Shown: positions 1,583 to 37,899 of the stretch, one piece after another
How positions within the stretch are numbered: position 1 is the stretch's first letter
Layout: every line of letters starts with the position of its first letter
Virus record (IMG/VR): IMGVR_UViG_3300034069_002177
Span: 96,001-160,000 of that record
Strand: one strand, 5' to 3'
DNA: 64,000 nucleotides
Source of the DNA: a virus
Lineage: Duplodnaviria; Caudoviricetes
Program-made: the position numbers and the translations under genes
The notes under the pieces: model-generated
Told to the model about the DNA's origin: nothing
Seen by the model: only the letters and a program-made list of their open reading frames with translations
Database searches by the model: none

Positions 1583-3103
1583 CTACGAAGACTGCTTTGT
1601 GAGACGGGTCTGAGCGAACTCGCGTTTTTCTTCGATGCTTTCCAGATCATCGAACGATTTAAGAACCGCTTGCTTGTCTTCTTGGCTCATTTCGGGAGTG
1701 AGAGACTCTTGGACCATCGACCACACCTTCCATTCAGGGGCTTTACCGGCAGATTCTACGTTCTTAACAGTGGGGCGAATGATAGAGGTCTGCTTGTCAT
1801 CATTGTAGGTACTGTGCTCTTTGATGGTGAGCTTGCTGATGTCGATAACTCCGCCTTCCCACACCTCCGGGGGATTGCTGGCACCCCATTTAATCAGATG
1901 GTTGTCTTCGTCTCGGAAAATCATTGTCGTTTTGTCACCGTAGTCGGTGGGATACGTTGCTCGGAACTCCAAAGTAAGCTTCATAGGCTTGATTATTTTG
2001 TCTCCCGGAGTACCAATCCATTCCTGATTGACTGGCGGCTTGCCTTCCTTGGCAATATCGGATGGCTTGTTGTTCTCGCGGTACCATGCAGAAACTGCGG
2101 AGGCAGCTATACCGACATGGCGTGCCTTTACCAACTCCATGTCCGTGTTGTTACCAGAACCAAAGACTGATTTGAGATTATCGATGTAGTCGCTACCGTT
2201 GTTTGAAGTGCTACGGACGTAAGCGATAACATCATCGACCTTTGCGGCGTCATACTTTTTGTCTTTTTCGCTCAGGGCGAGACTGACCTCATCAGCGGTC
2301 GCTTTGGTTGCCATCGTGCTGTTGGCGCGACTGATGTAATTGGCTCCATCATTGGTGAGGTTTAGAGCGACCCCGACAACATCACGAAGAGAGTAAGAAA
2401 CTCCCGAATTGCTTCCAAGTGAGGAAGATTCTAGGTCCGAAAGACTGTCTTCAATTTTAGTGTCATTGAGAGTCCAGAGACCTTCGGGTCGAACACCCAT
2501 GAACAATTGCAAGCAGTTGGATCCGATTTGCTTGGTATCACCCTCAGGGTTGGTCACGGTGTAGATCCGTTCGCGGCGGCGGTTGGTGTGGCATTGGTCG
2601 CAGTGTGCGTCTTCAGGAACTTCGAAGTCTGCACCCTTGCCGTAGTAGCTGAGCACATCACCAGCAGGAGTGAATTCGTGTGTAGCGGTGAAGGTCCACT
2701 CGCCGTTGGAAATCGTTGGCTTATTGAGAGTGGCTACGATAACCTCTCGCGAGGTACCATCATTCTCATTGTGAATCACTTTGGATTCGAAACCGTACTC
2801 GAATCGATCTTCGACACCAGCACGTTCAAGTCGATTATTTGCCATCTTGATAATGTGCTCGAACTTAGCCGAGTTATCTGCGGTGATCGTGTACTCCTGT
2901 ACAGGAAGACTTGCTCTATCAAGGTTTTCACCATCCGCGTCAAATGTTTGTTCTAGAACAGCTTCGGCAGCGCGGGGAGGGGTGGCGCTTTTGATACGGT
3001 TCTTGATGTCTTTCATGTTTGGCTTATCCGTGCTGCGGTGCACGGTGGTTGCCTTACCGTTTTTGTCAACGATAGGTGTGGGAACACGATTGGCGATAGA
3101 CAT
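1583..3103 (-). CDS. DKNG-tag protein with a Zn-binding module and a probable C-terminal OB fold
   Basis: N-terminus PTPIVDKNGKATTVHR; CDQCHTNRRR...QIGSNCL; C-terminal WIGTPGDK...YG...FRDE...WGAS. Confidence 0.75.
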   Translation of the reverse strand: MSIANRVPTPIVDKNGKATTVHRSTDKPNMKDIKNRIKSATPPRAAEAVLEQTFDADGENLDRASLPVQEYTITADNSAKFEHIIKMANNRLERAGVEDRFEYGFESKVIHNENDGTSREVIVATLNKPTISNGEWTFTATHEFTPAGDVLSYYGKGADFEVPEDAHCDQCHTNRRRERIYTVTNPEGDTKQIGSNCLQLFMGVRPEGLWTLNDTKIEDSLSDLESSSLGSNSGVSYSLRDVVGVALNLTNDGANYISRANSTMATKATADEVSLALSEKDKKYDAAKVDDVIAYVRSTSNNGSDYIDNLKSVFGSGNNTDMELVKARHVGIAASAVSAWYRENNKPSDIAKEGKPPVNQEWIGTPGDKIIKPMKLTLEFRATYPTDYGDKTTMIFRDEDNHLIKWGASNPPEVWEGGVIDISKLTIKEHSTYNDDKQTSIIRPTVKNVESAGKAPEWKVWSMVQESLTPEMSQEDKQAVLKSFDDLESIEEKREFAQTRLTKQSS

Positions 3104-3151
3104 AAGTGAGTCCTCCTAGGAATACCTCTAGGTTACTCCGTACTAGCGACA

Positions 3152-3757
3152 TCAGACCGCGTTGGATGCAAGACCGTTGAGTTCTGTTTTCAAAGTCAAA
3201 GTAATGTCGCTGAGCGCCACGTTCTGGCAATTCGCTGATGCGGCAATGAGAGCTAGGGAGGTAGTAGTGATGACTACCGCGTATTCGTATTCAGTAGATC
3301 CTAGTATGGTCGGATTGGCGAATTCTTTCACTTCTGTACCGACGAGGAAGGGAAGAACGCTTCCATTGATGAATGATTGAATATAGCGGGCGAAAGGCTC
3401 TGGTTCGATATCAGCAAGTCTTGCTATTGCTGGTGCGTTATGAACAATGAGACGTTTCGTTTCGTTCCAGACATCCATCTTGAAGTCATTGTGGGATTCA
3501 AAAGAACCGACAATACGTGTGCATAGCTTCACGCATGATGCGGCTAATACTCCCCACGGCATGACTTTGGTAACGAGACCGATGTTTGTTTGCACCATGT
3601 CGGAATAGCCCATGACATCGTATTCGATGTGCCCTTTGTCATCAGCGCAATGCAATACCAACTCGGCTAGACCCACAGCGGTACCATACGTCAACTCATT
3701 GACGGGGATACCCTCGGGCTTGGCGGACGGTGTGCCCGTGCCGGTTACCTGCTGCAT
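3152..3757 (-). CDS. Hypothetical protein
   Basis: 201-aa ORF co-oriented with its neighbours; no motif recognised. Confidence 0.65.
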   Translation of the reverse strand: MQQVTGTGTPSAKPEGIPVNELTYGTAVGLAELVLHCADDKGHIEYDVMGYSDMVQTNIGLVTKVMPWGVLAASCVKLCTRIVGSFESHNDFKMDVWNETKRLIVHNAPAIARLADIEPEPFARYIQSFINGSVLPFLVGTEVKEFANPTILGSTEYEYAVVITTTSLALIAASANCQNVALSDITLTLKTELNGLASNAV

Positions 3758-3860
3758 ATATGGAGGCTACACGAAACGGGCGGCGGCTGTCACAAAACAC
3801 AAAATCACCCAATGCGAGGAGAGAGCGCATTGGGTGATTTTGAGTATTCAGTTGTTAAAT

Positions 3861-4982
3861 TTATGCGGCGAGCTTCGGACGACCGACGCTACCACGACGC
3901 CAGTTCGGGAGTGCCTTGTCGAGCTTTGCCACCTTGTCAGACGACAGCTTGCCGTCCTTCAGGTACTTGCGGTTGCGAGTGATCCAGAATCCCATACGAC
4001 GAACGTCAGGGTCTTCCGAGGTCGTGGCGGGGAATGAACCGTTCTGCTTGTAGTATTCGGCAGAAGACACCAGAGTGTCTTCCCACGAAGAAACGTTCGT
4101 CGGAGCCTTGATGTCCGCCCAGTTGGGGAGCGTCGAGGTGAATTCCTCCGTACGGCTTTCGAGTTCGCCTGCCGCAGCCTTGCGCTTCTGCTCGAAGAAC
4201 CAGCGGGCGAGACGACGCTCGTCATCCTTTTCGGAGTTGACGGACGGAGCGTACTCGTTCTTCTCGAAGAATGCCTTGACGGCGGCGAGGTTGCGGCTCC
4301 ACTTGCCGTCGTTACGAGACAGGTCGTTCCATGCAGGAACAGCCTTGTTGAGGCTGGCGGCACGTTCCTCGGTCATCTGACCCTTTCGGAACATACGACG
4401 CTGGTTGTTGAGCCAAGCAGCGAGGCGACGCTCTTCGTCGGACTCACACTCGAAGACCGGCTTGAAGCCGTTGTTATCGAGGAACTTGACGAGAAGTGCG
4501 AGGTTCTCGTCCCATGTCGGGTAGTGCGAGGCACGCGTCTGCTTCTCACGCTGCCACTCGTTCCAGCCCGGAATCTTTTCGTCGAGGATGGCAATGGAAT
4601 CGAGAGAGGCTTCGCCGCGACGAGCCTGCGCCTTCTGGTTCGACATCCAGATGGCGAGTTTTCGCTCATCGTCATCATCAGACGATGAGACCGGAGTGCG
4701 GTCGCTCTTGGCGACGAATTCGAGATAGGCGGCGAGGTTGGTTCCGAAGCGGTCCGTCCGGCTACTCGTCTCGCGCCAGTGGGGAAGCTTTGCGTCGAGA
4801 AGGGCTGCACGGTCATCACGCATGTTGCCGGAGCGAAGTCGAACTCGCTGCATCGTGAACCACGACGCCAGGGTTGCTTCCTCGGGAATGGTGGATGACG
4901 GGTTGCGCCCGTTCTTATTGTAGAAATCGCTAACCTCAGCAAGACGATCCTGCCAAAGGTTTTCGCGCTCTTCGTTGTTCAT
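3861..4982 (-). CDS. Stand-alone protein of five helicase-associated (HA)-like repeats
   Basis: Five repeats of about 62 aa each, of the form W..nL....F....g..P......Er.La.W...Qr.....G.m...r...Ld...P.W; no helicase motifs. Confidence 0.85.
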   Translation of the reverse strand: MNNEERENLWQDRLAEVSDFYNKNGRNPSSTIPEEATLASWFTMQRVRLRSGNMRDDRAALLDAKLPHWRETSSRTDRFGTNLAAYLEFVAKSDRTPVSSSDDDDERKLAIWMSNQKAQARRGEASLDSIAILDEKIPGWNEWQREKQTRASHYPTWDENLALLVKFLDNNGFKPVFECESDEERRLAAWLNNQRRMFRKGQMTEERAASLNKAVPAWNDLSRNDGKWSRNLAAVKAFFEKNEYAPSVNSEKDDERRLARWFFEQKRKAAAGELESRTEEFTSTLPNWADIKAPTNVSSWEDTLVSSAEYYKQNGSFPATTSEDPDVRRMGFWITRNRKYLKDGKLSSDKVAKLDKALPNWRRGSVGRPKLAA

Positions 4983-5091
4983 GTGGTTTCTCCTATTTTT
5001 GTGTAGCTTGCGACTGAGCCTACACTAAAAGTGTGAGATGCGCAAGTTATCAGAAAGGTGGCGTTTATGACAAGTTTCTGACGTAGGAGCT

Positions 5092-5121
5092 ACGATACAA
5101 GAAGAATCGCGGTTTTGTCAA
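5092..5121 (-). promoter_or_regulatory. SigA-like promoter for the HA-repeat gene
   Basis: Minus strand reads TTGACA-18 nt-TATCGT. Confidence 0.55.
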
Positions 5122-5145
5122 GTCCCCTATTTCTGGGGACACAAA

Positions 5146-5580
5146 TTAACGAGTTCTGTGGTTGCCCGAGTGACCGCTTTTGAGGATGCAAGGGGCACCA
5201 ACACTGTCTACCATAGTGTTGCAGACAGACTTCTCAGTCGCAACGCCCCTGGTAGAGAAGGTAGGAAGCACAGTCTTGATATCAGGCTGCAAGAACTCAG
5301 GGGTTTCCATTGCCGCTTCAAGGCTATCGAAACTTTCTGAGTTGAATTCCCCCGAAGAATTCAAGCGACCCGACTGGTACTTGGCATTGAATTCGGAGGG
5401 GTGACGCGTTACAACGACATTGTACTGCATATCAGGAGAGTAGCTGAGACCAACTACCCGGTCGTCAACAACATCAGCCGTCTCGTAGAGGTACCGCTGT
5501 AACGCGGACCTTCTATTAGCAGGACAAGTGGTGCGGAGGTAGAATTCGGTATCGACATCGGTAAGAGTTGCGGTGGACAT
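5146..5580 (-). CDS. Hypothetical protein with a C-terminal CCHH motif
   Basis: Ends CNTMVDSVGAPCILKSGHSGNHRTR*. Confidence 0.75.
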   Translation of the reverse strand: MSTATLTDVDTEFYLRTTCPANRRSALQRYLYETADVVDDRVVGLSYSPDMQYNVVVTRHPSEFNAKYQSGRLNSSGEFNSESFDSLEAAMETPEFLQPDIKTVLPTFSTRGVATEKSVCNTMVDSVGAPCILKSGHSGNHRTR

Positions 5581-5697
5581 GTTTGCATTCCTTCCCTATT
5601 GGGGTATGGACAACTACCGTATTAGGATAACACTCTTAAAGGCTGAAATTGCGCAATCCGCTATTTGCTGGTAGGGTTGAGATGAATCGAGGTTGAG

Positions 5698-6468: not shown

Positions 6469-6511
6469 AAGTTACTTGCCCTAGAATGGTCTTCCACAGG
6501 AAGGCTATGGC

Positions 6512-7060
6512 TTGTCAAAATCAAGGCACATAACCATCAACAACGTCTCCTTTGTAGTTGGTAGGACCATCGTCATTGCCTTCTTAGTGGGCGCATTTAC
6601 GTTATTCGCAGCTACATTTTTCGTACCCCGTTTCATTTTTCACGCCCAGAACTATGTTGTCGTATCCGGGTCAATGGTTCCTGAAATCAATATCGGTGAT
6701 ATCGTGATATCGGATACACATTACGATCCAGCGACCATCAAAGATGGCGACGTGGTGACCTATCTGACGAACGACCCCGATAACCCTTATGCTAATTCCA
6801 CTATTGTCCATCGAGTGATTAGCGCCCAGCATAACCAAGACGGAACGAAATACAAGTTCGTCACCAAGGGTGATGCAAACCTATCCTCAGATATACCGAT
6901 TACAGAACTCGATATCACAGGGAAAGTGCTGTACAAAGTTCCGTACATTGGACTCGTGACAAATTCAGCCTACTCCGGTGACATCCTGCTATTCATCGGG
7001 CTACTAATGGTAATGTTCGGGATAAGGCACGCTGAGCAAAGGAAAAGGCGCAAGAAATGA
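6512..7060 (+). CDS. Signal peptidase I, SipW/archaeal-ER type (S26)
   Basis: VVSGSMVP (catalytic Ser), IVHRV (His) and TKGDAN; N- and C-terminal TM helices. Confidence 0.9.
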   Translation: MSKSRHITINNVSFVVGRTIVIAFLVGAFTLFAATFFVPRFIFHAQNYVVVSGSMVPEINIGDIVISDTHYDPATIKDGDVVTYLTNDPDNPYANSTIVHRVISAQHNQDGTKYKFVTKGDANLSSDIPITELDITGKVLYKVPYIGLVTNSAYSGDILLFIGLLMVMFGIRHAEQRKRRKK

Positions 7061-8177: not shown

Positions 8178-8447
8178 ATGAGTTTGGTACTAGATAAGAT
8201 TGCAGAAGTTAAGGTGATTACTCGTCCGAGTTGCCAGCCTTGTAAAGCGACTATTCGTAAGTTCGGCTCATATGATCTCACCATCATCGACAGCGCAATC
8301 GAACGTGAAGAAGCCCTCGCTCTCGCCGCCGAGGTTGGTTACTTGGCAGCACCTATCGTAGTCGTTTACGCCGAGGATGGAACGATCATTGATCACTGGA
8401 CAGGATTCAACCCTGACCGTATCAATGCCGTTGTCGGTGCTAACTAG
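8178..8447 (+). CDS. nrdH: NrdH-like glutaredoxin
   Basis: TRPSCQPCKAT (CxxC), APIVVV and DHWTGFNPDRI; AAGGAG RBS. Confidence 0.9.
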   Translation: MSLVLDKIAEVKVITRPSCQPCKATIRKFGSYDLTIIDSAIEREEALALAAEVGYLAAPIVVVYAEDGTIIDHWTGFNPDRINAVVGAN

Positions 8448-8543
8448 GAGGTGATCCCTGTATCTCGGTTGCGGGTTTAGTAGTACCTGCGATAAACAGG
8501 GAAGCACAGCTAGACCCGCAACTGTCAGGGTTCACCTTCTAGT
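8443..8543 (+). ncRNA. Candidate rod-shaped structured RNA of about 100 nt
   Basis: 8443-8460 pairs with 8526-8543 (one G-U, one mismatch); 8468-8480 pairs with 8510-8522 (one G-U); apical CCTG/CAGG hairpin. Strand assumed. Confidence 0.55.
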
Positions 8544-8574
8544 CCACGATTCACCACTCATATAGGAGTAATAA

Positions 8575-9054
8575 TTGCCAAGACGACCAATTGCACAACC
8601 ACATTCCGTATCGCGCCGCGAACATCTGAAAATGGAACAGATAGGACTGAAAAGGTCTTTCCAATCAGGCGGGCGAAATCTGACGGAGGTTGAGTATGTC
8701 GGCTTGCACACTTTCCGCAAAATGCTTGCCAACCGTAACAAGAACCTCGGTGTTGCTGGTAGGCAGGTTTTGCGTGAACAAGCGGAGAGAAGCCGCAGTT
8801 TTGGAATTACGGAATTCGATTGCGCTGCTTGGTATGTTCTTTTCGGCGGTAATGAAACTCGCTACGAGAACGTACTTAATTCCGATATCGCGTTGATTCC
8901 TTTCGTAAAGTACCAGTCTGCTGGCGTCATGGATGACGACATCATTATCGAGTCACTCATCATCGGTCGTTCTGTTGAAGATGCCATTGCTGAGTTCAAA
9001 AAGCAGCACAACATCGTTCAGGATGAAGATTTCCTTTACGCCGAAACTGCTTGA
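8575..9054 (+). CDS. Hypothetical protein
   Basis: AGGAG RBS before a TTG start; 159 aa. Confidence 0.7.
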   Translation: MPRRPIAQPHSVSRREHLKMEQIGLKRSFQSGGRNLTEVEYVGLHTFRKMLANRNKNLGVAGRQVLREQAERSRSFGITEFDCAAWYVLFGGNETRYENVLNSDIALIPFVKYQSAGVMDDDIIIESLIIGRSVEDAIAEFKKQHNIVQDEDFLYAETA

Positions 9055-9419
9055 TGTCTGCATCAGAGATGCCCTCCCAAAAAGTATCCACTTTATTGCT
9101 CACCAAGGCTCTAAGCTCGGCGTTCCTATTCGTTGGTGTGGGTGCATTCGTACTCGCCTCGATGGCTTCTGCGTTCGTCGCTTCTTCGCTTGGAATTGGC
9201 GCTATAGGAATATTCCTACGCACTTATACGGCAGTGGAAGTATCAGCGGTTCCGCTTTTGCTTATCGTCGCTCTACTTGCAGCAGCCTTGAACACGGGTA
9301 GAAAAGATTCGAAGGGCTTCAAGCAAAATTTTGGGACAATGACCGAATCCACCCTTAGTTCGTTGTTCTGCGCCCCTCTCGTAGCCGCACTTGTAATCTA
9401 TTTGGTACTTAGCCGCTGA
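9051..9419 (+). CDS. Membrane protein (3-4 TM)
   Basis: Predominantly hydrophobic; overlaps the upstream stop codon. Confidence 0.7.
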   Translation: MMSASEMPSQKVSTLLLTKALSSAFLFVGVGAFVLASMASAFVASSLGIGAIGIFLRTYTAVEVSAVPLLLIVALLAAALNTGRKDSKGFKQNFGTMTESTLSSLFCAPLVAALVIYLVLSR

Positions 9420-9482
9420 TTTTCTTTTGCACAAAGTCGGACGGATGTGCTAATGTATCCCAAAGTACAGGAAGGTACGAAG

Positions 9483-9905
9483 ATGACTCTGCTAGTCAAT
9501 ACCAATGAACCGACCGGTCAGGCGGATGTTCTCCACCAAAGCCGTGAAAACGATGAAACATCAGTAATGGTGCGAGTCATGGTCCCCGTCAGGCGCGCAA
9601 GCCGCTTCTGGCAGATGCTTCGCGATGAGTCGCTAAGCCAGTTCGCCCCATTCGGAACCTATGAGTCAGAGGATTTCCCCTCGCACCGACTCATGGTTGT
9701 TGAATTCACCGGCAAGCCTCAGGCGGTGAACACCGACCTCGACATGTTCACGAAGTACCACTTCACACCTAAGGTCGTCAGTAATGACTCCGATGCCGTC
9801 GCAATTCCGTCCATCAGCTTCTCCAAAACAAACAAGCTCGACTTCTCGGACCCTGAGTTGGATTTCAACAAGAAAACCAAAGGCTCTTCGAGCGCATTTA
9901 GCTAA
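9483..9905 (+). CDS. Hypothetical protein, paralogue of 25921-26325
   Basis: Shared blocks RFWQM[LI]RDE, P.GTY and F.KY.F..KVVS.DS.A. Confidence 0.8.
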   Translation: MTLLVNTNEPTGQADVLHQSRENDETSVMVRVMVPVRRASRFWQMLRDESLSQFAPFGTYESEDFPSHRLMVVEFTGKPQAVNTDLDMFTKYHFTPKVVSNDSDAVAIPSISFSKTNKLDFSDPELDFNKKTKGSSSAFS

Positions 9906-9910
9906 GTAGC

Positions 9911-9956
9911 AAGAAAACAGCCCTCGGTGTATCAGCGCCGAGGGCTGTTTTCTTTT
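9911..9956. terminator. Intrinsic terminator
   Basis: AAGAAAACAGCCCTCGGTG / CGCCGAGGGCTGTTTTCTT inverted repeat with A and T tails. Confidence 0.85.
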
Positions 9957-10034
9957 AACCAGAAATTTCGCATTACGTTCTGAGCGTCGTGAGGTGTGGC
10001 TAGGATTGTCTATAAGCACCGAAAGGCAATCTTG

Positions 10035-10493
10035 ATGTCCGTTGTACAACCAGTTGAAATCATCGATAAGAATGGCAAACGAAACACTGTTCGCAAAAGA
10101 CTGGACTCGTCAACCTCCGGTAGCAAAAGAAATACCACTGTTACTAGCTCTACCAGGGAGGAAGAAAGCTTCGACCACCCCTTCTTCCCCGATGCGGAGG
10201 ACAAGAAAACCGTCAAGCTCATTCGCAAAGTTTTCAAAGGAGCATCTGAGTTTCGATTCGAGTTCGAAGTAGAACGCGGCTCGCTGTATGTCATGAATAG
10301 GTCGGTTGTTTTAGAAAGCGGCGACGTGCATTCGGATGATGACAATGACGAAAGCAATCTTTCGCGACTTGATGAGGTTTCGGATCGCTTAGCGGAAATG
10401 TACTACTCATTGGGTGCATTCGGTTCACAACGTCGCGTACGGGTTGTGAACCAAGAAAGCGAGAGCAGATACATCGCCATCAGACTTGACTGA
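10035..10493 (+). CDS. DKNG-tag hypothetical protein
   Basis: GAAAGG RBS; MSVVQPVEIIDKNGKRNTVRK. Confidence 0.75.
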   Translation: MSVVQPVEIIDKNGKRNTVRKRLDSSTSGSKRNTTVTSSTREEESFDHPFFPDAEDKKTVKLIRKVFKGASEFRFEFEVERGSLYVMNRSVVLESGDVHSDDDNDESNLSRLDEVSDRLAEMYYSLGAFGSQRRVRVVNQESESRYIAIRLD

Positions 10494-11372: not shown

Positions 11373-12605
11373 ATGGTGATGACTGAGTTCTATCGAGATG
11401 ACAGGTCTATTGTCCTGCACGGCACTGCATTAGAAGCCTTAAAAGGTATGCCAGATAACTCCGTTGATGCCGTTGTTACAGACCCTCCATACGCCTTGAC
11501 TGATTTGGATAGCAAGAAAGTCGTTGCGGCACTGACTTCGTGGACAGTCGGAGATAGGTCGTACGTTCCTGATTCCGGTAAAGGTTTCCGAGGAATGGAC
11601 TGGGATAAGTTCGTACCTCCGCCCAGTCTTTGGGATGAATGCATTCGCGTTTTGAAGCCAGGGGGATACTTGCTTGCCTTCGCTGGTGCACGGACACAGG
11701 ATCTCATGGGTATATCCATCCGCATCTCGGGGTTTGACATCAAAGATGGTATCGGCTGGGTATCCAGTCAGGGATTCCCGAAATCATTGGATGTAGGGAA
11801 GGCGGTTGATAAACATGTAAGCTCTGTGAGCCCATCTGAGGCGTTAGATGTTGTTGGCTCATCAGAGGAAGCAGTAATAGCCTCAGAGCCGCAGGTAGCG
11901 TCCTGGGATGGTTACGGTACGGCTATGAAGCCTAGCTTCGAGCCAATTATTGTTGCTCAGAAACCAATTGGTGAACGTAGTATCGTTGCCAATGTTCTTC
12001 GACATGGAACTGGTGCCTTGAACATTAACGCCACCCGAGTCGGCGGTTCTACAAAAGAAGACGCAGTGAGTCATCTCGGTAGATGGACCCCTAATTTTGT
12101 TCTTTCGCATTCTGAAGAATGCTTCCAGTCAGGGGCAGCGCCCGATTTCTTCGTCCGCAATAAGACGGAACAGTGGACGGGTTTTGGTCAGAAAGAAAGA
12201 CCCGGTTACAGTAGTGAATCAATCAGCTTCTCGACACCGACATACCATTGTGTCGAAGGATGTCCTGTGAGACTCCTTGCCGAAGAATCAAATAGTCATG
12301 CAGCTAAGGTTCCTGGTGAGGGTGTTACGTCCAAATACTTCCCCGCCTTCCTTTATCACAAGAAAGCTTCGAAGCAAGAAAAGCCAGTGTCCGCCGATGG
12401 GAAAACACACGTATCTGTCAAGCCGCTCGAACTGATGCAATGGCTCGTTCGACTCGTCACGCCCCAGGGTGGGGTTGTTCTAGATCCCTTCCTGGGATCG
12501 GGAACAACAGTCGAGGCAGCACGTCGAGAAGGTATTCTTTCCATAGGTGTTGAAGGGCATCAGCCCTACCTCGAACTAATTTCACAAAGACTCCAAAGGT
12601 CTTGA
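11373..12605 (+). CDS. Orphan beta-class amino (N6A/N4C) DNA methyltransferase
   Basis: VVTDPPY near the N-terminus, H.SVKP.ELM.WLVRL and DPFLGSGTT near the C-terminus; no restriction endonuclease adjacent. Confidence 0.92.
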   Translation: MVMTEFYRDDRSIVLHGTALEALKGMPDNSVDAVVTDPPYALTDLDSKKVVAALTSWTVGDRSYVPDSGKGFRGMDWDKFVPPPSLWDECIRVLKPGGYLLAFAGARTQDLMGISIRISGFDIKDGIGWVSSQGFPKSLDVGKAVDKHVSSVSPSEALDVVGSSEEAVIASEPQVASWDGYGTAMKPSFEPIIVAQKPIGERSIVANVLRHGTGALNINATRVGGSTKEDAVSHLGRWTPNFVLSHSEECFQSGAAPDFFVRNKTEQWTGFGQKERPGYSSESISFSTPTYHCVEGCPVRLLAEESNSHAAKVPGEGVTSKYFPAFLYHKKASKQEKPVSADGKTHVSVKPLELMQWLVRLVTPQGGVVLDPFLGSGTTVEAARREGILSIGVEGHQPYLELISQRLQRS

Positions 12606-15663: not shown

Positions 15664-16578
15664 ATGAACGCCAAAGTACCTACCCCTATTGTCGATAAGA
15701 ACGGCAAGCGCACTACCGTCCACAAACGCACAGATGATGGCAAAAGTGGTCAAGGTCGCGCCGGTTCTGTAGCTGCTCCAAAACAGACTGTCGTAGAGCC
15801 AGAACGCAGTGAGTATGTAGCGCCGAACAGGGCTTCCTTGCAGAAACTCATTCGCTACAAAGGTGAAGTGATGACCTGGGGACAGCTTCTCGAAGAGCTT
15901 CAGCCTGTTGGTATCAGAAGGACTTTGGTTGGCGATGAGGCGCGACCTTCATGGGGTGCTGTACATTCCGATGACGAGAGCATCAGCACGGGAATCACCG
16001 CTCAGATAGCCAAGGATAGTGGTCTCGAAGATATCACCGAGCCCATAGATAGAGTGCGTGACGATCTCGCTGTTGCTCAGCGCAAGCTAGACAACGCGAC
16101 ATACGGCTTCAACATAAGGCGAACTCCTGACGAAATCAAGTACCGCGAACAAGTCAACAATTTGACTGCCGAACTTTTGGTTTTTGAACGTGATTCGGCA
16201 AAGGACAAGCTTGAAGGTATGGACTCTTCTGAGAAGATCGGCTACATGCTGAATTCCATTTGGGCGCAATCAAATTCGATGGCTCAGGTACTTGCTGAAG
16301 ATGAAGACATCGAAGTAGTAAGGGCACTAGCAGCATCAGATGCACGTAATTACCTTGATGTCGATTACCGCAAAAACCTCATCAACCACCCAGATGAGAA
16401 GGTACGGGAGAACTACATGACGGGTAATAACGGTCTTCCTGTAAACAAAATCTTCGACGTTGTTGAAAAAGACTCATCCCAGCTAGTTCGTGACGCTGCT
16501 CAGCAGCAGATTACCAGCAGAGGCTATGAAGTATACCGCGACGAGGGCGGCATGCTTCATATGAACACTCTGAAGTAA
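15664..16578 (+). CDS. DKNG-tag protein with C-terminal HEAT/LRV-like repeats
   Basis: AGGAGG RBS; MNAKVPTPIVDKNGKRTTVHK; LAEDEDIEVVRALA, HPDEKVRE and KDSSQLVRDAA repeats. Confidence 0.8.
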   Translation: MNAKVPTPIVDKNGKRTTVHKRTDDGKSGQGRAGSVAAPKQTVVEPERSEYVAPNRASLQKLIRYKGEVMTWGQLLEELQPVGIRRTLVGDEARPSWGAVHSDDESISTGITAQIAKDSGLEDITEPIDRVRDDLAVAQRKLDNATYGFNIRRTPDEIKYREQVNNLTAELLVFERDSAKDKLEGMDSSEKIGYMLNSIWAQSNSMAQVLAEDEDIEVVRALAASDARNYLDVDYRKNLINHPDEKVRENYMTGNNGLPVNKIFDVVEKDSSQLVRDAAQQQITSRGYEVYRDEGGMLHMNTLK

Positions 16579-18276: not shown

Positions 18277-21210
18277 ATGATGGTATCCACACACGAGAAG
18301 CACGCTCTCCGAGTTGCGCGTAAGGCAGAAGACCTGTCTTACGCCGCGCGTTCGGTTTGGGGTAAGACCCAGCGTGGTAAAGATACGACCTTCTGGATGC
18401 CTCTTTACCGGCACTTGGCTGATACTGCACTCGTATCTGCGCGCCTTTACGATGAATACCTGCCGGATGCCGCCAAGCGAGATATTGCTCTTGCTCTGAA
18501 CAGCGAAGATGATGCGCGGACACTAGCTATTTTCCTTGCTGGAATTCACGACCTCGGTAAGTCATCGCCTGTTTTCCTTGCATCAGAAGATGATTACGTC
18601 AATGAACTCAATGATGCATTCATGGGCAAAAATGGTCTTCACGTGCCACGAGGTCTTGATAGATCTCTAATTCGACATGAAGTAATCTCAGCTATTCTCA
18701 TCAAGCGCTTCCTTCTCGAAGAAGGTGTCTCTGAGGCTGTAGCTGATTCTTGCGCAATCGTAGTCGGTAGTCATCACGGCAACCCCCTCTCTCACGAGCT
18801 TCTTGCGTCTTGTATCGGTCGAGAAGACATCATCGGAACTTCTGACCCAGCCTGGCTCGCCGTTCAGCGCGAAATCTTTGACTATGCCGCTGTCATCTCC
18901 GGGGCTAACAAGAGCTTCATTAATTGGCGAGACATGGAGATGTCACGTTCAGCAGAAACCATTCTTATGGGTTTCGTTGTAGCTGCTGACTGGGGTGCCT
19001 CTCAGGGTTTTGGCTGCAATATGTCTTTGAAATCCAAGACCCTCGACATCGACGTAAAGAAAGACACCAGCCGAGCGGTGGTTGCGCTCAACGCACTGCC
19101 TATTCCATCCAAGTGGACACCCTCTGTACCGCCCAACGCAGGGAGTGAATTCTTCCATACGAGATTTGGCTTCCCACCACGACCTGTACAGAAGGCTGCG
19201 CTTGATGCTGTTCGTCCAATGACAGACAGTGGGCTAATAATCATCGAAGCCCCAATGGGTGAAGGCAAAACGGAAGCCGCGCTCGCTGTTGCTGAGGTAA
19301 TGGCTCAGCAAACTGGTGCGTCAGGAGTATTTGTTGCACTACCCACCATTGCTACCTCAGACGCCATATTCAGCCGCGCCCGAAGCTGGGTTAGCAACCT
19401 TCCCGGAAGCCGCAGTGGCATGTCGATGTATCTTTCGCATTCCCGTTCCGGTCTCAACGGTAACTTCGCTGAACTACTAGATGCGGCTCGTGAAGAAGGC
19501 GTCGATGGTGGACACGTCAATAGGTGGCTGTCACAGGGAACCAAGCTGGGTCCGCTATCGAACTTCGTAGTCGGGACTATCGACCAAGTGCTTGTTTCGG
19601 CATTGGCATCAAGGCATGTCACGTTGCGACATCTAGCGCTCGCCAACAAGGTTGTAATTCTCGATGAGGTGCATGCATATGATGCGTATATGAACGTATT
19701 CCTGGCACGAGCGTTGCAATGGTTGGGTTATTACGGCGTTCCCGTCGTGCTTCTTTCGGCTACTTTGCCGACCGATATCCGCAAGGATCTGGTGGTGGCA
19801 TATAACGACGGCTTGAATTCGCGTCGGACGATGAGTGCACCTGTCAAGGAACTTCCTCTTACTTTGGACATCACTAAGATTGCAAAGTCCAAGCAGTCAC
19901 GTAATGACATTGGCGGTATTGACCTGAAGCCGTTGACAACTATTCGGTACCCTTTGATTTCCGTTCTGGACAAGAAAGGTGTGCATGTTCATCACACCGA
20001 AGGTGCATCGAGCAAGAATCCGCTCGCTCTGAATGTGCTTCCTGGCGGTGGTAACGACGAGACGCTCGCGAAGCGTCTTTCTGACCGACTCATCCACGGC
20101 GGGTGTATCGGAATCTTCCGTAATACGGTCGCTCGTTCTCAGCAGACCTATGACGCCATGAAGGCATACTTTGCGGAGCAAGAAATTCCTGTCGAGGTTC
20201 TTCTACTCCACTCGCGATTCATCGGGCTTGATCGCGCCGTCAAAGAACAGCGGCTCAACAACTATCTCGGCAAGGAATTTGCCAAACGACCTAAGCGGCT
20301 CATTGTAGTCGGAACACAGGTGATGGAACAGTCGCTTGATATCGATTTCGATGAAAGCATTTCGGACATTGCTCCTATTGACTCGCTGTTGCAGCGCGCG
20401 GGACGAACCCATCGCCACAACATCCCCAATCGTCCGCGCGTATTCACGGAACCAAGACTTTACATCGCTGGAGTCTCTAACTGGGATGAAGAAGAAGGTG
20501 GGGTGCCTGGTGTCAACCATGCCGCAGAAGCGATTTATCCACTCAAAACACTGTACCGAGCCGTTCACGCCCTGCGCCCTTACGCCCTAGATGACGAGAA
20601 GCGACTACAACTCCCTCGTGATATTTCTGCCTTGGTACGTCGTGGTTATGGCGACCGTGTTCGTCCGCCTGAAAGCTGGAAGGACGAATGGAAGGTAGCC
20701 GAGAAAGAATGGCGCGATCTCATCAAGGATAAACGGGATAAGGCTGACAGTAACTATCTCCTTCCCGCGCCTGAGACCGACATCCTTGACTGGCAAAGCC
20801 ATATCAGCAAGGGTGTTGGAGATAGCGAATCCAAAGCACTCGCGTCTGTCCGAGACATCGATGATGAGGAAGAGATCATCTTGCTCAAGTCGAATGGAAA
20901 GGGTCAGATCCAAACTCTCGATGGAGAGTTTGCTGGTGCTGGTCTCGCAGTTGATTTCGAGAGTAAACCTAATCACGAAACTGCACTTGCTATTGCGGCA
21001 AGCATGTTGCGTCTCCGGGCAAAAGAATTTGCTGCCCTTGACGCTGAGTCGGTTCTATTCGACACCGATCTGATTGGTGAATGGAAAGCGATTCCGATTC
21101 TACGTCACAAGAAAATTCTGGTGCTGCGAGAGAACATGGTTATCAACGGCAAGGGTTTTGCTGTGCAGTACAGCCATGACCGGGGTTTGGAAATGAAGGT
21201 GGTTAAGTGA
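18277..21210 (+). CDS. cas3: Cas3 HD nuclease-helicase (type I-E)
   Basis: WGK...PL..HL.DT, IHDLGK, HHG, EAPMGEGKTEAA, LDEVHAY, LLSATL, HSRF, TQVMEQSLDIDFD and QRAGRTHRH. Confidence 0.97.
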   Translation: MMVSTHEKHALRVARKAEDLSYAARSVWGKTQRGKDTTFWMPLYRHLADTALVSARLYDEYLPDAAKRDIALALNSEDDARTLAIFLAGIHDLGKSSPVFLASEDDYVNELNDAFMGKNGLHVPRGLDRSLIRHEVISAILIKRFLLEEGVSEAVADSCAIVVGSHHGNPLSHELLASCIGREDIIGTSDPAWLAVQREIFDYAAVISGANKSFINWRDMEMSRSAETILMGFVVAADWGASQGFGCNMSLKSKTLDIDVKKDTSRAVVALNALPIPSKWTPSVPPNAGSEFFHTRFGFPPRPVQKAALDAVRPMTDSGLIIIEAPMGEGKTEAALAVAEVMAQQTGASGVFVALPTIATSDAIFSRARSWVSNLPGSRSGMSMYLSHSRSGLNGNFAELLDAAREEGVDGGHVNRWLSQGTKLGPLSNFVVGTIDQVLVSALASRHVTLRHLALANKVVILDEVHAYDAYMNVFLARALQWLGYYGVPVVLLSATLPTDIRKDLVVAYNDGLNSRRTMSAPVKELPLTLDITKIAKSKQSRNDIGGIDLKPLTTIRYPLISVLDKKGVHVHHTEGASSKNPLALNVLPGGGNDETLAKRLSDRLIHGGCIGIFRNTVARSQQTYDAMKAYFAEQEIPVEVLLLHSRFIGLDRAVKEQRLNNYLGKEFAKRPKRLIVVGTQVMEQSLDIDFDESISDIAPIDSLLQRAGRTHRHNIPNRPRVFTEPRLYIAGVSNWDEEEGGVPGVNHAAEAIYPLKTLYRAVHALRPYALDDEKRLQLPRDISALVRRGYGDRVRPPESWKDEWKVAEKEWRDLIKDKRDKADSNYLLPAPETDILDWQSHISKGVGDSESKALASVRDIDDEEEIILLKSNGKGQIQTLDGEFAGAGLAVDFESKPNHETALAIAASMLRLRAKEFAALDAESVLFDTDLIGEWKAIPILRHKKILVLRENMVINGKGFAVQYSHDRGLEMKVVK

Positions 21211-26706: not shown

Positions 26707-27012
26707 ATGAACGTACAGCCGCCAAAACCAGATTTGCTCGTCACCTTCCCTGATGGAGCAATAGCTGGATGGCATGACGGTTATTTCTTCGGTGACGATT
26801 CCAAAGCTGCTATGGCTATTCTGAGATGTGAAGCACTGTTCTTTTTTGAATCGGAGCTTGGGCTGTCTGTAGCCAACCAATACTCTATCGAAGGAGCACT
26901 TGTCGCTCTTATTGGTAGTAAGCCCCGAAGTCAATTCATCATCGTACCGGAACAACCAATCAACAACGTCCCAATGGTTTTAGCAGCCGGAATAGGTGCT
27001 TGGCATGAGTGA
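26707..27012 (+). CDS. Hypothetical protein
   Basis: In-frame ATG 26707 chosen to avoid a long overlap; stop overlaps the next gene. Confidence 0.55.
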   Translation: MNVQPPKPDLLVTFPDGAIAGWHDGYFFGDDSKAAMAILRCEALFFFESELGLSVANQYSIEGALVALIGSKPRSQFIIVPEQPINNVPMVLAAGIGAWHE

Positions 27013-27430
27013 TACTTTTATCACCAAAGAAATCTTGGACAAAAACGGCAACCCTAAAACCATTCAAGTCAAGGTCGCAGGTGATGCGTACCGTCCCAAC
27101 CCTAGTTGGCGCGGCATCGAGTACGGCTGGACAATTGATGACGTAGCACCTGAGTCCATTGATGGGAATTGGCGTCAGGACATTGCTGACTGGGTGGTAT
27201 CACACGGTGGCGTTGTGGTTGCTAGACGAGTTGATATCGACAACGAAGAAGTTCCTTTGGTTTATACAGCAAACCACAGCCTGTTATTCGTTGTATTTGA
27301 CAAAGAACCCGAGCCAAAACATTGGCAGCAATGGAGTCAAGACTCTGGCATTGATAAAGAGCAAGTGCTGCTTCACAGAGTCATTCACGACGGCAATTCG
27401 GTTCGCCATAAGTTTTCGTTGATGTCGTAA
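27005..27430 (+). CDS. DKNG-tag (variant) hypothetical protein
   Basis: MSDTFITKEILDKNGNPKTIQVK. Confidence 0.7.
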   Translation: MSDTFITKEILDKNGNPKTIQVKVAGDAYRPNPSWRGIEYGWTIDDVAPESIDGNWRQDIADWVVSHGGVVVARRVDIDNEEVPLVYTANHSLLFVVFDKEPEPKHWQQWSQDSGIDKEQVLLHRVIHDGNSVRHKFSLMS

Positions 27431-27479: not shown

Positions 27480-28523
27480 GTGAGTGAACTCATCGCAACA
27501 CCAGTCACAGACAAGAACGGCAAGCAGACCACCGTTCATAAAAAGCCCGTTACTTCGGGTACCGGTGCCAAGCGTGCATCGAAGGTAGCTCCTAAGAGCG
27601 CCGCCGTCAAAAAGACCTACGAGAAAAAGGGTCCAACTCTTACGGAAAAGCTGGAAGGCTACAAGGAGGAACTCAAGAGCCGCGTTACGGCACTTGCTGA
27701 TGACGCCAATTGGAATCATTACCTCACTTCGATGAGTAAGTTCCATAACTACTCATGGAACAATCAGATCCTCATTGATATCCAAACCAAAGGGCAGGCA
27801 ACTCATGTTGCAGGCTACAAGACATGGCAGTCCTTGGGTCGCACGGTTAATGGCGGCGAGAAGGCTATCGCTATCATTGGATTTCGAAAGATCAAAGTAG
27901 ATGCTACCGACCGTAATGGCAACAAGATTATGGGAGCGGATGGCAAGCCCGAGAAAAAGGAGATTCCCAACTTCTTCGGCACAGGTGTTTTCGACATTGC
28001 ACAGACTTCCGGTGACGCACTACCCGAGGCACACGCCAAGATGACAGCAGAACCCCCTGTTGGTCTCACTAACGACCTTGAAGCAACCATTAAGGCAAAA
28101 GGCTTCTCAGTTGAATACGTAGACAACTTACGTGGAGCTAAGGGCAGCACTTCCACCGATCCGAATCGCAAGGTTGTGCAGATTCTCAGCAGCTTGAACG
28201 ATGGCGAACGAGCCAAGACTCTTGCACACGAACTGTTCCATATCGCCTCTGGTCACATCGAACGTGCCGATGAGTACCACACCGGTCATGGTGGGCAACG
28301 TAACGCTATGGAAGTGGAAGCGGAGTCCGGTGCATACGTTCTTCTGCGTGCTAACGGTATGGACGAGCATGCAGATACCTCAGCGACCTATGTTGCCGGA
28401 TGGGCTGGCGTTCGTGGCGGTAACGACCGTGAGAAAATGGTTGCTAATGCCGCAGAAAATGTTGCCAAAACAACTCGTTCACTTCTTACCGATTTCGAGT
28501 GGCAAAACTCCGACTTAGTGTAG
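27480..28523 (+). CDS. DKNG-tag ArdC-like anti-restriction protein (ssDNA-binding N-domain plus zincin-like domain)
   Basis: W..YL..MSKFHNYSWNNQILI..Q...AT.VAGYKTWQ.LGR.V..GEKAI.I; TLAHELFH and EVEAES.AY. Confidence 0.88.
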   Translation: MSELIATPVTDKNGKQTTVHKKPVTSGTGAKRASKVAPKSAAVKKTYEKKGPTLTEKLEGYKEELKSRVTALADDANWNHYLTSMSKFHNYSWNNQILIDIQTKGQATHVAGYKTWQSLGRTVNGGEKAIAIIGFRKIKVDATDRNGNKIMGADGKPEKKEIPNFFGTGVFDIAQTSGDALPEAHAKMTAEPPVGLTNDLEATIKAKGFSVEYVDNLRGAKGSTSTDPNRKVVQILSSLNDGERAKTLAHELFHIASGHIERADEYHTGHGGQRNAMEVEAESGAYVLLRANGMDEHADTSATYVAGWAGVRGGNDREKMVANAAENVAKTTRSLLTDFEWQNSDLV

Positions 28524-30809: not shown

Positions 30810-30811
30810 AC

Positions 30812-32047: not shown

Positions 32048-32145
32048 TTGCGTTGTCCGCGAGGGGTTGTACACTTGACAAACACAAGGTTCCGCAAGGA
32101 ACTTTAGCCAAGCCAAACATGCAAAATCTGGCTTGGCTTTTGTGT
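32048..32145 (+). promoter_or_regulatory. nrdIEF promoter and structured leader
   Basis: TTGCGT-16 nt-TACACT, then a GCAA-loop hairpin (32086-32105) and a perfect 10-bp hairpin (32106-32138) followed by TTT. Confidence 0.55.
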
Positions 32146-34830: not shown

Positions 34831-34835
34831 TCTAG

Positions 34836-35909
<1,074 letters not shown>

Positions 35910-35918
35910 CCCAGCAAT

Positions 35919-35957
35919 AAAAGAAGCCCCGGAGAGAAAATCTCCGGGGCTTCTTTT
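35919..35957. terminator. Bidirectional terminator
   Basis: AAAAGAAGCCCCGGAGA / TCTCCGGGGCTTCTTTT. Confidence 0.9.
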
Positions 35958-35965
35958 GCGTGGTC

Positions 35966-36700
35966 TTACTTAGTCGGCAGTGACGTGAACCCGATAGGTG
36001 CTGCCCCATCGATGAGGCGATCATCGTATTCGGGGAAACGCTGCGTAAGCTCGATGATATTCATGGCGTGATGTGTGATGAAAGTGCTGTGCAGATGCCC
36101 TGATACAGCATCGAGGTTCTCGCCCGCCCAGAATTTCACAGAATGCTCTTGTAGCTTGGCATATTCATCGCTCCATGCGCGTCCATCAGTTGTGACGGGT
36201 TCGGCGTGGTTCTCACCGTAGAACCGTGCAAGTTCGGCAAGCGGTCGCAACGGAAGTAGATCGAAACGAGGCTCGACCTCAGCACCCGAACGGCGAATAA
36301 GATCTTGATGCTTGGCGGGATATTCCTTGCTCTCAATAACGCCGACTTCGAAATCATGCTCAACAGCATCCGGTGCAACGGGGCGGTCGTCGAACTTCTG
36401 GAAGGTGTAGAAGAATTCCGTCAGAGCGAAGCCGTGCCAAGCAACAGAAGCCATATGACTGACATTCATTTCGAGGTCAATGTCCTCGCCGGACCAGAAC
36501 AGGTTTGCGTGGCGTTGCAGGCTGGCGTACGACTTCCGCCATTCATAACCTCTACGGAAGTTGTGATCGGCGTATTTACGCGCACCAACTCCATACAACC
36601 GAGCCAACTCGGTCAATGCATTCGGAGGAATCTTGTCATAGGCTTGAACCTTGACGCCTTTTTCTCCACCAGTGGATGAGACTGAACGAACTTCTGCCAT
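35966..36700 (-). CDS. dATP/dGTP diphosphohydrolase-like (DUF5664-type) protein with a tandem second domain
   Basis: GGEKG.K...YD.IP..AL.ELA..YG.GA.KY..HN.RRG..W...Y..LQRH...FWSGED.D.E....H...VAWH; repeated in degenerate form from RFDLLP. Confidence 0.8.
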   Translation of the reverse strand: MAEVRSVSSTGGEKGVKVQAYDKIPPNALTELARLYGVGARKYADHNFRRGYEWRKSYASLQRHANLFWSGEDIDLEMNVSHMASVAWHGFALTEFFYTFQKFDDRPVAPDAVEHDFEVGVIESKEYPAKHQDLIRRSGAEVEPRFDLLPLRPLAELARFYGENHAEPVTTDGRAWSDEYAKLQEHSVKFWAGENLDAVSGHLHSTFITHHAMNIIELTQRFPEYDDRLIDGAAPIGFTSLPTK

Positions 36701-36825
36701 GTGCTACACACTCCTAAATCTGTGGAAGTCTACAACGGCATTAGTCAACAAGCAATAGGCACTAGTGAGAAGTTTGGCGGGTGTCGGTCCTCCGTGAGAT
36801 AGTAGTGTTACGAAAGGTAATCGTC

Positions 36826-37899
36826 ATGCAGAAAACAGCCCCATCGCCATCGACTACACGCGCCGGATTGGTGCTTGTACCAAAGGTGGATAAGAATGGT
36901 CGTCAGACACGCGTATGGGTTCGCAAGGATGATCTTTCGGGTGCTCAGCTAAGTCGTGTTGTCTTCCGCCCTAGCACTGTTGCTAGCAATCGTCTTTACT
37001 CGGCAGGATTTGACAGCAGAGAAATCAAGACAAGTCCTTGGGGTAAGGTAAACAAGGTCGAAGAAATCCACGCAGGTATCTACTCGGTTGACGCCGATGA
37101 GGGCAAAGGGGTATTCCTTTCACCAGCACGCCAGGATGAAATTGATGAGGCGTGGAAATTGGGTGAGGGCGATGGGTGGTACTCAGCGGACGGTATGGAA
37201 TGGTCAGTTATTCCCTACACATTTCCAGAAGAATTTGGAGAAGAAGCGTCTGAGCAGGCTGCTGAAAATCTCCGCGACTACTACCCTCACGAATACACCG
37301 AAGTAACCGGAGAAATTGTTTACGAAGAAGAGTCTTACGTTCTTTCCGCCGAGGCATTCGATCAAGCTCATGAAGGTGAATACGCAGCAACCTCTATGGA
37401 GGATGGCGTCAACGAAGATGAAGTAATCATCACTGCTAGTCGTATTGGTGAAGAAGGAGATGACGCGGAGTTCATCGTTTCCAAGGAAGAGCTAAAAGAC
37501 GATGGTGAACTTCCCAAGGGGCACCGTAAGCTCATTGACGAAGAGAAGCACCCTCGCACAAATCCAGAAATCGAAGCGCTCAAGCGAGAACTAAAGGATG
37601 CCATCAAGGGTGCACTTATCGCCAAGTTCCCTCGGTCGAAGTATGTCATTTCGACCTACTATGTCACTAAGGCGACGATGCAGGGTATCAATAAGAAACG
37701 CTCTGCTGACGACGAAGATGAGTACATCAGCAAAGACTGGGGACTTAGAGGTATGCAGAAGGGCTTTATGAGCCAACTGATTGTGGAACTGAAAAATCAC
37801 TCCCAGCCTCGGACAGCAGACGAAGAATACGCCCGACAGATGCGTAAATATCGCCGTCAGCAGCGTAACCGCAGATGGATGCAAAGAATTATTGGATAA
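36826..37899 (+). CDS. DKNG-tag protein with a DUF7007-like domain
   Basis: GAAAGG RBS; LVPKVDKNGRQTRVWVRK; SPWG......GIYSV...GWY...EW.VI..TFPE.F...A...LRDYYP..Y...TGE. Confidence 0.7.
   Translation: MQKTAPSPSTTRAGLVLVPKVDKNGRQTRVWVRKDDLSGAQLSRVVFRPSTVASNRLYSAGFDSREIKTSPWGKVNKVEEIHAGIYSVDADEGKGVFLSPARQDEIDEAWKLGEGDGWYSADGMEWSVIPYTFPEEFGEEASEQAAENLRDYYPHEYTEVTGEIVYEEESYVLSAEAFDQAHEGEYAATSMEDGVNEDEVIITASRIGEEGDDAEFIVSKEELKDDGELPKGHRKLIDEEKHPRTNPEIEALKRELKDAIKGALIAKFPRSKYVISTYYVTKATMQGINKKRSADDEDEYISKDWGLRGMQKGFMSQLIVELKNHSQPRTADEEYARQMRKYRRQQRNRRWMQRIIG

Follow-up and report, generated by a model that had tools for sequence, protein, structure and literature searches.

The stretch of DNA considered here, referred to as the window, spans 64,000 nucleotides (nt) and corresponds to positions 96001-160000 of a single 202,737-bp record (IMG/VR IMGVR_UViG_3300034069_002177, here G000; 51% GC). 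About 8% of the ~245 genes of this record encode proteins that begin with the same short peptide, centred on the sequence DKNG. This tag is a modular N-terminal peptide, maintained by selection at the peptide level and fused to unrelated soluble cargos.

In the six-frame translation of the window DKNG occurs six times, compared to a mean of 0.2 and a maximum of 2 in 200 shuffles, which rules out a chance origin of the copies. All six copies head open reading frames (ORFs) of 141-506 amino acids (aa), about 10 residues past the start codon and 15-40 codons downstream of the preceding stop. The initial annotation had reported six such peptides in proteins starting at 3103 on the minus strand and at 10035, 15664, 27005, 27480 and 36826 on the plus strand, and all six are present at these starts. 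The set is real but partial, as the whole record holds 17 strong and 2 weak (VDVNG) copies, detected with a profile built from the copies themselves. All of them are N-terminal, with the Asp 8-13 residues past the Met; under random placement, such an arrangement has a probability of ~1e-19.

The tagged proteins of the window are diverse in size and cargo. P0001 (506 aa; 1583..3103, minus strand) carries the hairpin tag PTPIVDKNGKATTVHR at 3035-3082, and its ortholog P0067 is tagged too. The remaining five are all encoded on the plus strand. P0002 (152 aa; 10035..10493) carries the tag PVEIIDKNGKRNTVRK (10050-10097) on an acidic cargo without an assigned family, and P0003 (304 aa; 15664..16578) bears PTPIVDKNGKRTTVHK at 15679-15726, with residue 32 as the Arg of the second element described below and, again, a cargo without an assigned family. 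The shortest protein, P0004 (141 aa; 27005..27430), has the most divergent of the six tags, TKEILDKNGNPKTIQVK at 27023-27073, and no promoter of its own. It is followed by P0005 (347 aa; 27480..28523), in which ATPVTDKNGKQTTVHK (27495-27542) precedes an ArdC-N domain and a zincin-like metallopeptidase (MPTase-PolyVal), a pair that represents the usual ArdC architecture. Finally, P0006 (36826..37899; 357 aa counted from the Met at 36826) combines the 'W' variant VPKVDKNGRQTRVWVR at 36877-36924 with a DUF7007 cargo. The ArdC and DUF7007 cargos proposed on first reading are borne out by Pfam (PF08401, 2.6e-10, and 4.1e-22, respectively), whereas the label 'Zn/OB' corresponds to phrog_2319, a family of unknown function matched by P0001, and the label 'HEAT-like' to a weak match.

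To collect further copies, a strict back-translated pattern was used, which retrieved 87 stretches in a handful of metagenomes. These loci and the record together amount to ~748 kb and contain 194 unique tags, none of which is internal, so that the expected N-terminal restriction holds in related DNA as well. Specifically, the Asp lies 8-13 residues past the nearest Met in 176 of 180 cases, the commonest distance being 10. The consensus is M-S-N-(T/L/K)-(V/I)-P-T-P-I-V-D-K-N-G-K-x-T-T-V-H-K-K, followed by D or E. The hairpin core, PTPIV-DKNGK-xTTVHKK, is thus placed about 5 residues past the initiator Met, and Lys residues are conserved at tag positions +1, +4, +10 and +11, with Arg as a low-frequency substitute. 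A gapped alignment reveals a second element, consisting of an Arg (97%) located 6-10 residues after the hairpin, then h-x-x-h-P-x-P and a Pro/Ala/Ser/Val-rich stretch. The region beyond the tag had been described as a basic Ser/Ala/Gly linker, which is correct only in outline: the linker has a net charge of ~+1 (next to ~+3 for the tag), is enriched in Pro, Ala, Ser, Thr and Val, and contains a near-invariant Arg.

The codons used to encode the tag indicate at which level it is conserved. It had been noticed that two PIVDKNGK copies differ only at third codon positions; they do so at 5 bases, and over the longer VPTPIVDKNGK all 8 of 8 differences are third-position. The same pattern extends to 156 tags, in which every synonymous codon is in use at the conserved positions. 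Since synonymous codons vary freely, selection acts on the peptide and conservation of the DNA itself is ruled out. The tag is near-identical between elements of 44% and 51% GC. As far as structure is concerned, the AlphaFold2 model obtained from an alignment of 120 N-termini is a β-hairpin, whose strands span residues 4-10 and 16-22 around D-K-N-G-K (predicted local distance difference test score, pLDDT, 84-94), and coil in the remainder. In addition, the sub-variants covary across the strands, as V4 is found with R8 in 12 of 12 cases and E-4 is associated with R8 (p=1.6e-6).

The bodies to which the tag is attached are unrelated. BLAST sorts the 156 complete tagged proteins into 107 clusters, including 77 singletons, and the 15 scored in the record all have different cargos; orthologous cargos, in turn, retain the tag across different elements. 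With a median length of 230 aa, tagged proteins mostly have a single cargo domain. Their cargos are acidic (-7.6 per 100 aa overall), and within the record the median is -5.0 per 100 aa for tagged and -2.2 for untagged proteins (p=9e-4). A transmembrane (TM)-like segment is present in none of 155 tagged proteins but in 182 of the 600 untagged ORFs that share their loci, a control that includes some spurious ORFs. A Sec or Tat signal was also considered for the tag region and rejected, given the lack of any hydrophobic or TM-like stretch, the single conserved Arg and a linker that is polar or made of Pro and Ala.

Only ~3-7% of cargos match a Pfam family of any kind. In the record and related loci these are ArdC-N with zincin metallopeptidase, DUF7007, a CCA-adding/poly(A) polymerase with HD domain, GmrSD_N, ART-PolyVal, an exotoxin-type ADP-ribosyltransferase, LPD29, SprT-like, a papain-like Tox-PLDMTX fold, DUF3990 and DUF7226; a tagged tRNA nucleotidyltransferase is encoded at genome positions 8389-10065. 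Among 147 database representatives, Pfam matches are limited to GmrSD_N, LRV and ArdA. Unrelated cargos that include anti-defence domains had been anticipated from the six window proteins, and the larger set agrees. Judging from these domain assignments, the recognisable cargos are the polyvalent-protein repertoire plus classic anti-restriction proteins. According to a proposal by Iyer and colleagues, polyvalent proteins enter the cell by injection, together with the invading DNA (PMC5512222).

Residues 1-40 of P0003, used as the query of a word-based search, recovered six further proteins, each starting PTPIVDKNGKRTTVH(K/R) and with unrelated bodies. An exhaustive profile search of 1.84 billion representatives gave 886 clusters at E≤0.001, of which 118 reach E≤1e-10, and in the best 150 of the 886 clusters the match starts at residue 1-2, with few at residue 7-16. 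The sole exception in architecture is P0042, a metagenomic protein of 770 aa with three hairpins: besides the N-terminal one, two lie within the protein, close to residues 190 and 440. P0042 may be a fusion of three tagged units, linking separate tagged proteins to covalent polyvalent proteins. Outside this set, back-translated DKNGxxTTxHK did not detect the tag, at the stringency used, in 185,579 species genomes and IMG/VR: the only matches were to a motif inside proteins of an unrelated protease family and, by chance, to one C-terminus and one short ORF. Likewise, tblastn of the tag found no match in 72,556 PLSDB plasmids or 50,697 INPHARED phage records, a profile search of the PDB found none beyond a chance IVDKNGK, no Pfam family covers the N-terminal tag region of the tagged proteins, and literature searches for the peptide returned unrelated papers only. 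When the region was compared with plasmids and phages by megablast, nrdE/nrdF alone gave matches. Within the scope of these searches, the tag is restricted to one lineage of giant uncultured elements.

A second feature common to the tagged genes is found upstream of them. A k-mer comparison of upstream regions brought out TGTCG and TAGAAT-like boxes, which were then scored as a spaced motif. TGTC-N12-TAnnnT occurs within 100 nt upstream of 77 of 150 tagged genes (51%) and of 33 of 570 untagged ones (6%), with an odds ratio of 17 (p=2e-35), and 76 of these 77 sites have a spacer of exactly 12 nt. Conversely, an ordinary -35/-10 pattern precedes 3% of tagged and 23% of untagged genes. About 20 of the 77 sites end 6 nt before the ATG, implying leaderless mRNAs. 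Under stricter positioning 13 'untagged' genes are left, at least 7 of which have divergent tags with an RRDG or RSDG turn in place of DKNG. Such variants (e.g. PTPITRRDGVATTVWRK) were observed in the related loci L036, L063, L071, L085 and L010:14399; as they share the promoter and are often leaderless, the tag family is wider than the DKNG pattern.

In the window, the motif lies 26 nt upstream of P0001 (3130..3151, minus strand), 19 nt upstream of P0003 (15623..15644, plus) and 35 nt upstream of P0005 (27423..27444, plus), and a near-variant, TGTCGG...GATAGT, precedes P0006. Eleven of the 17 well-placed sites of the record precede tagged genes. The rest include one at 32054..32075 (plus), upstream of the untagged nrdI-nrdEF operon, so that the regulon extends past the tagged genes, and one at 47897..47918 (plus), 19 nt upstream of the first gene of an operon for a type IV secretion system (T4SS). 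The latter site is kept in 4 of 4 related elements (55-67% protein identity, 45-50% GC) despite diverged flanks. That the tagged genes share their promoter type with the T4SS operon strengthens the link of the tag to transfer. The geometry of the motif is that of the RecA-NDp consensus, tTGTCRgtg-8nt-TAnnnT (PMC5656591). This consensus is bound by PafBC, an activator of Actinobacteria that single-stranded DNA (ssDNA) turns on (PMC11804915). In particular, the promoters of the mycobacterial PafBC regulon, which ssDNA activates, are likewise made of TGTC, a 12-nt spacer and TAnnnT with no -35 box (PMC5656591, PMC8635444, PMC11804915). Genes of that regulon, unlike those described here, serve chromosomal DNA repair, whereas in this case the promoter drives a T4SS operon and the tagged accessory proteins of a mobile element. 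Pfam and PHROG scans gave no annotation for candidate receptors or for the untagged genes behind the same promoter.

The T4SS operon extends from 47938 to 60583 on the plus strand. It starts with a gene for a 332-aa protein, followed by a gene with no Pfam match, and then encodes a VirB4-like AAA_10 ATPase (50395-53157), a ParA/MinD-like ATPase (53244-55511) and a VirB6-like polytopic protein of 1297 aa (56690-60583). In the ParA/MinD-like ATPase, ~330 acidic, Tyr/Pro/Gln-rich low-complexity residues with repeated (N/Q)DGY separate a small N-terminal domain from the P-loop domain. This protein could act as a recruiting or condensate-forming factor, which makes it a candidate partner of the basic tags. 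Downstream, a coupling-protein candidate of 921 aa, with TM segments and the Walker A sequence GAPNSGKT, occupies 63637..64000 of the window (plus strand) and continues to genome position 162402, and it is followed by a weak Replic_Relax relaxase candidate. Whether the tag accompanies the conjugation genes had been raised as a check, and at least three contigs do carry it together with the VirB4/VirB6/coupling-protein cluster, namely G000, a 495-kb contig (L010, P0018) and Ga0206103_100108 (L057, L121).

The record also encodes an FtsK-like ATPase, PilB/PilT/PilC, DnaE, DnaX, GyrA, SbcC, NrdEF and LigA. IMG/VR classifies it as a provirus with CheckV completeness 96. Capsid, portal and terminase families (PF05065, PF04860, PF03237, PF03354, PF04466) have no match in the record, and no structural PHROG is found among the 25 strongest PHROG matches of 118 ORFs, so that the virion suggested earlier as a possible destination of the tag finds no capsid genes to go with it. 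From its gene content, the record probably belongs to a giant conjugative element and has been filed under viruses by mistake. Proteins of the element recur on contigs of 123-805 kb, and 27 homologues of the coupling protein are all metagenomic, with conserved synteny. Close and distant homologues of the coupling protein and T4SS were observed, in particular, on L120 (Ga0540634_0000001, 805,269 bp), L117 (373,877 bp) and L010 (494,976 bp), of 44%-61% GC; these elements, comparable in size to small bacterial genomes, keep the order of the VirB6-like protein, DnaX, the coupling protein, the relaxase candidate and DnaE/DnaB/SNF2/FtsK. The T4SS/replisome flanks behind L117, L119 and L010, whose coupling proteins are 38-44% identical, have no tags, which is also true of that half of G000. 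As to the host, indirect clues are provided by WhiB-like genes at G000:184661-184825 (L123; over the Pfam cut-off) and L117:19414-19710, the latter adjoining an FtsK-like gene, by Curtobacterium megaplasmids as the sole VirB4 plasmid matches (22% identity), by the implied leaderless starts and by a plant metagenome as the main source. The lineage would consist of conjugative elements of giant size (0.2-0.8 Mb), whose hosts are probably actinobacterial.

Some further genes deserve mention. The 977-aa ORF at 18277-21210 is Cas3 (Cas3_HD, DEAD and Cas3_C by Pfam). Untagged genes of the window include an N6/N4 DNA methylase (11373-12605), a DUF2201 metallopeptidase/VWA protein (37972-39441) and a NAD-dependent DNA ligase (44233-46206, minus strand). 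Elsewhere, the record carries NAMPT-like proteins with phosphoribosyl pyrophosphate (PRPP) synthase, indicative of NAD salvage, an RtcB-like tRNA ligase and thymidylate synthase. Together with the tagged tRNA nucleotidyltransferase, this set is reminiscent of measures against NAD-depleting and tRNA-cutting defences. Finally, the most acidic protein of the record (470 aa; genome 57607-59019, L004:6607-8019), with Asp/Glu runs and a net charge of about -24 per 100 residues, has no family match.

What, then, might the tag be for? The reading that we tentatively favour, at somewhat less than an even chance, is that the DKNG module is a common recognition handle for T4SS-linked delivery. According to this proposal, ssDNA would appear in the donor, when DNA is damaged or processed for conjugation, or upon entry in the recipient, and host PafBC would then activate the T4SS and the tagged proteins together. 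A single receptor would read the common handle and hand the tagged proteins over to the T4SS with the N-terminus leading. In this way, enzymes for anti-defence and takeover would arrive in the recipient alongside the DNA. A single reader is the simplest explanation because the tags are near-invariant: dozens of tags that have to fit one receptor freeze both sides. The strict N-terminal site beside a flexible linker, in addition, suggests a directional process such as threading or co-translational capture. Hand-over to the T4SS is favoured because the machine and the tagged set share a promoter type, because those cargos that can be recognised belong to types believed to accompany DNA, because conjugative T4SSs move plasmid proteins (PMC8406263) and because there are known cases of T4SS effectors with a recognition module in common (PMC8740702). 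The proposal can be narrowed further, to a dedicated and portable N-terminal export signal of a monoderm conjugative T4SS, by which dozens of tagged enzymes would be injected and which PafBC would switch together with the machine. In this form it is possible but is held with greater doubt.

Several observations weigh against delivery through the T4SS. The relaxase candidate is untagged, even though a relaxase is the one certain T4SS substrate. Signals of conjugative and effector T4SSs are mostly C-terminal. No tagged genes lie in the T4SS/replisome half of the record. The two internal copies of P0042 suggest that a free N-terminus is possibly not essential. As for regulation, PafBC is assigned from promoter geometry alone, and no WYL-domain regulator is encoded in the 202-kb record, so that the PafBC of the host has to be assumed. 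Moreover, ssDNA-responsive promoters would allow the recipient to make the proteins by itself, with no need for protein transfer, and a role of the tag as a degron or in docking would fit promoters of the ssDNA type equally well. Finally, the physical link between tag and T4SS is a conjectural one, as the complex prediction of the tag module with residues 321-921 of the coupling-protein candidate speaks neither in favour of binding nor against it.

The strongest competitor, unlikely on balance though still to be taken seriously, is that the tag is a handle for degradation or sequestration, through which an unfoldase, a protease or an adaptor of the host or the element (Pup-proteasome, Clp) would clear or neutralise the tagged set, with its potentially harmful proteins, once the ssDNA is gone. 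A strictly terminal position beside a flexible or unstructured initiation region is what such a handle would look like, and the conserved Lys residues fit as well, although Arg takes their place at low frequency. ADP-ribosyltransferases, proteases and nuclease-like proteins are cargos that a stable host should not keep; a conserved host machine, in turn, would explain why the tag is near-identical at 44% and 51% GC, and clearance of this kind would echo the proteasomal removal of members of the host PafBC regulon (PMC8223512). Known degrons, however, are short and degenerate, in contrast to a 16-residue, two-faced and near-invariant hairpin accompanied by a second Arg/Pro element, and the tag has no similarity to any of them. 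Turnover would also leave unexplained why the T4SS operon shares the promoter of the tagged genes.

Less probable again is a docking peptide, in which the basic hairpin and linker would tether the enzymes to a shared site of encounter between defence and counter-defence, for instance the incoming ssDNA or its SSB/RecA coat, the relaxosome, or a host hub (RNA polymerase or the ribosome, for example), with neither export nor degradation. The charge of the tag and of the linker on otherwise acidic cargos speaks in its favour, as do the expression tied to an ssDNA-type signal, the internal hairpins of P0042 and the fact that the ssDNA-binding ArdC-N domain often anchors effector domains in polyvalent proteins (PMC5512222). 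P0005, on the other hand, already has an ArdC-N domain of its own, and cargos such as a tRNA enzyme and protein-modifying enzymes are at odds with this role. In addition, Pro, Thr, Ile, Val and Thr-Thr-Val-His resemble a surface for protein-protein β-augmentation more than one for nucleic acids. Moreover, a binding epitope needs no N-terminal site, and still 194 of 194 tags lie at a fixed distance from the Met.

A nascent-peptide or translational role would dispense with a shared partner altogether. In this case the first ~35 residues would act in the ribosome tunnel or co-translationally, tuning a partly leaderless regulon, and both the fixed distance from the start codon, with the Arg/Pro element ~20 residues downstream, and the leaderless mRNAs implied by the ~20 promoters that end 6 nt before the ATG could be accommodated. 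Such a role is nevertheless very improbable, given the predicted stable hairpin with its covarying cross-strand positions, the internal copies in P0042 and the lack of precedent for an arrest-type peptide on ~8% of a proteome. Least credible of all is a tag that directs proteins to a virion or capsid, or serves a giant phage as a packaging signal of some other kind. The IMG/VR classification and completeness, an N-terminal position like that of the T4 capsid-targeting sequence and replication and nucleotide-metabolism genes resembling those of a jumbo phage would argue for it, but against it stand the lack of capsid, portal, terminase and structural PHROG matches, the full conjugation cluster of the record and the absence of the tag from the phage records.

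The use of a short N-terminal address on unrelated delivered cargos has parallels in the T4 capsid-targeting sequence (internal proteins, Alt), which is cleaved by the prohead protease, and in the N-terminal packaging regions of Photorhabdus virulence cassettes (PVC) and extracellular contractile injection systems (eCIS). These addresses depend on capsids or contractile sheaths, and the element encodes neither; they have no sequence similarity to the DKNG module. The MIX and LXG markers represent further shared addresses on diverse effectors. Another close comparison is with the XVIPCD domains of the Xanthomonas T4SS toxins (X-Tfes), which are recognised by the all-alpha domain of VirD4 (PMC8740702). 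In both cases one conserved module is found on many unrelated effector domains in a T4SS-bearing system (here, the 107 clusters), a folded, β-containing part is combined with a flexible tail, and effectors are identifiable by the module alone. XVIPCD domains, by contrast, are C-terminal, ~120 residues long and of ααβββ fold, and belong to proteobacterial antibacterial toxins with immunity partners, whereas the DKNG module is N-terminal, comprises ~22+15 residues and occurs only in giant elements of probable actinobacterial hosts. The two have no sequence similarity, and for the DKNG module binding to the coupling protein is hypothetical.

With regard to gene content, F-type plasmids have leading-region anti-defence genes with ssDNA promoters, and protein transfer as well (PMC11541004, PMC8406263). 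As in the elements described here, genes of the ArdA/ArdC anti-restriction type are placed under a signal of ssDNA entry, and in F-type plasmids some of the same proteins are also translocated through the T4SS. Leading-region plasmids differ in their folded, Frpo-type ssDNA promoters, in the lack of a common tag and in being small proteobacterial or Firmicute plasmids. Polyvalent proteins share with the tagged set the ArdC-N, MPTase-PolyVal, ART-PolyVal, LPD29, SprT-like and papain-like domains and presumably the same early counter-defence role (PMC5512222), but they join 2-15 domains in one polypeptide, while in this case separate proteins share a tag, in what may be called a 'non-covalent' version.

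A shared address on diverse effectors is thus already known as an idea, XVIPCD being an example (PMC8740702). As far as the literature and database searches show, the peptide itself, its N-terminal site in a conjugative system, the scale of its use (~8% of the genes in each element and ~900 families in all), its confinement to giant uncultured elements and its coupling to a PafBC-type promoter that the T4SS also has are undescribed. If the module is a common handle, a simple sequence rule would pick out ~900 mostly unannotated families, more than 95% of them without a Pfam match, as the likely counter-defence and takeover arsenal of a lineage of giant conjugative elements that is absent from the searched literature. 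It would also connect a host sensor of ssDNA, by way of the PafBC-type promoter, with the way in which plasmids are transferred and become established in Actinobacteria; if true, this link would represent a differently built counterpart of the leading-region ssDNA promoters of proteobacterial plasmids. Under the same premise, the choice of protein substrates by Gram-positive-type T4SSs would become testable via tag-reporter fusions, and a short, portable tag could be obtained with which to deliver proteins, or to control their turnover, in Actinobacteria. Should the export reading be true, the DKNG module would be the first sequence-defined protein-translocation signal of Gram-positive-type conjugation, as well as an index to ~900 uncharacterised effector families. 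Even if it serves turnover or docking, one peptide governing ~8% of the proteome of an element has few described parallels, and the shared module and promoter point to an undescribed system that handles a set of anti-defence proteins together.

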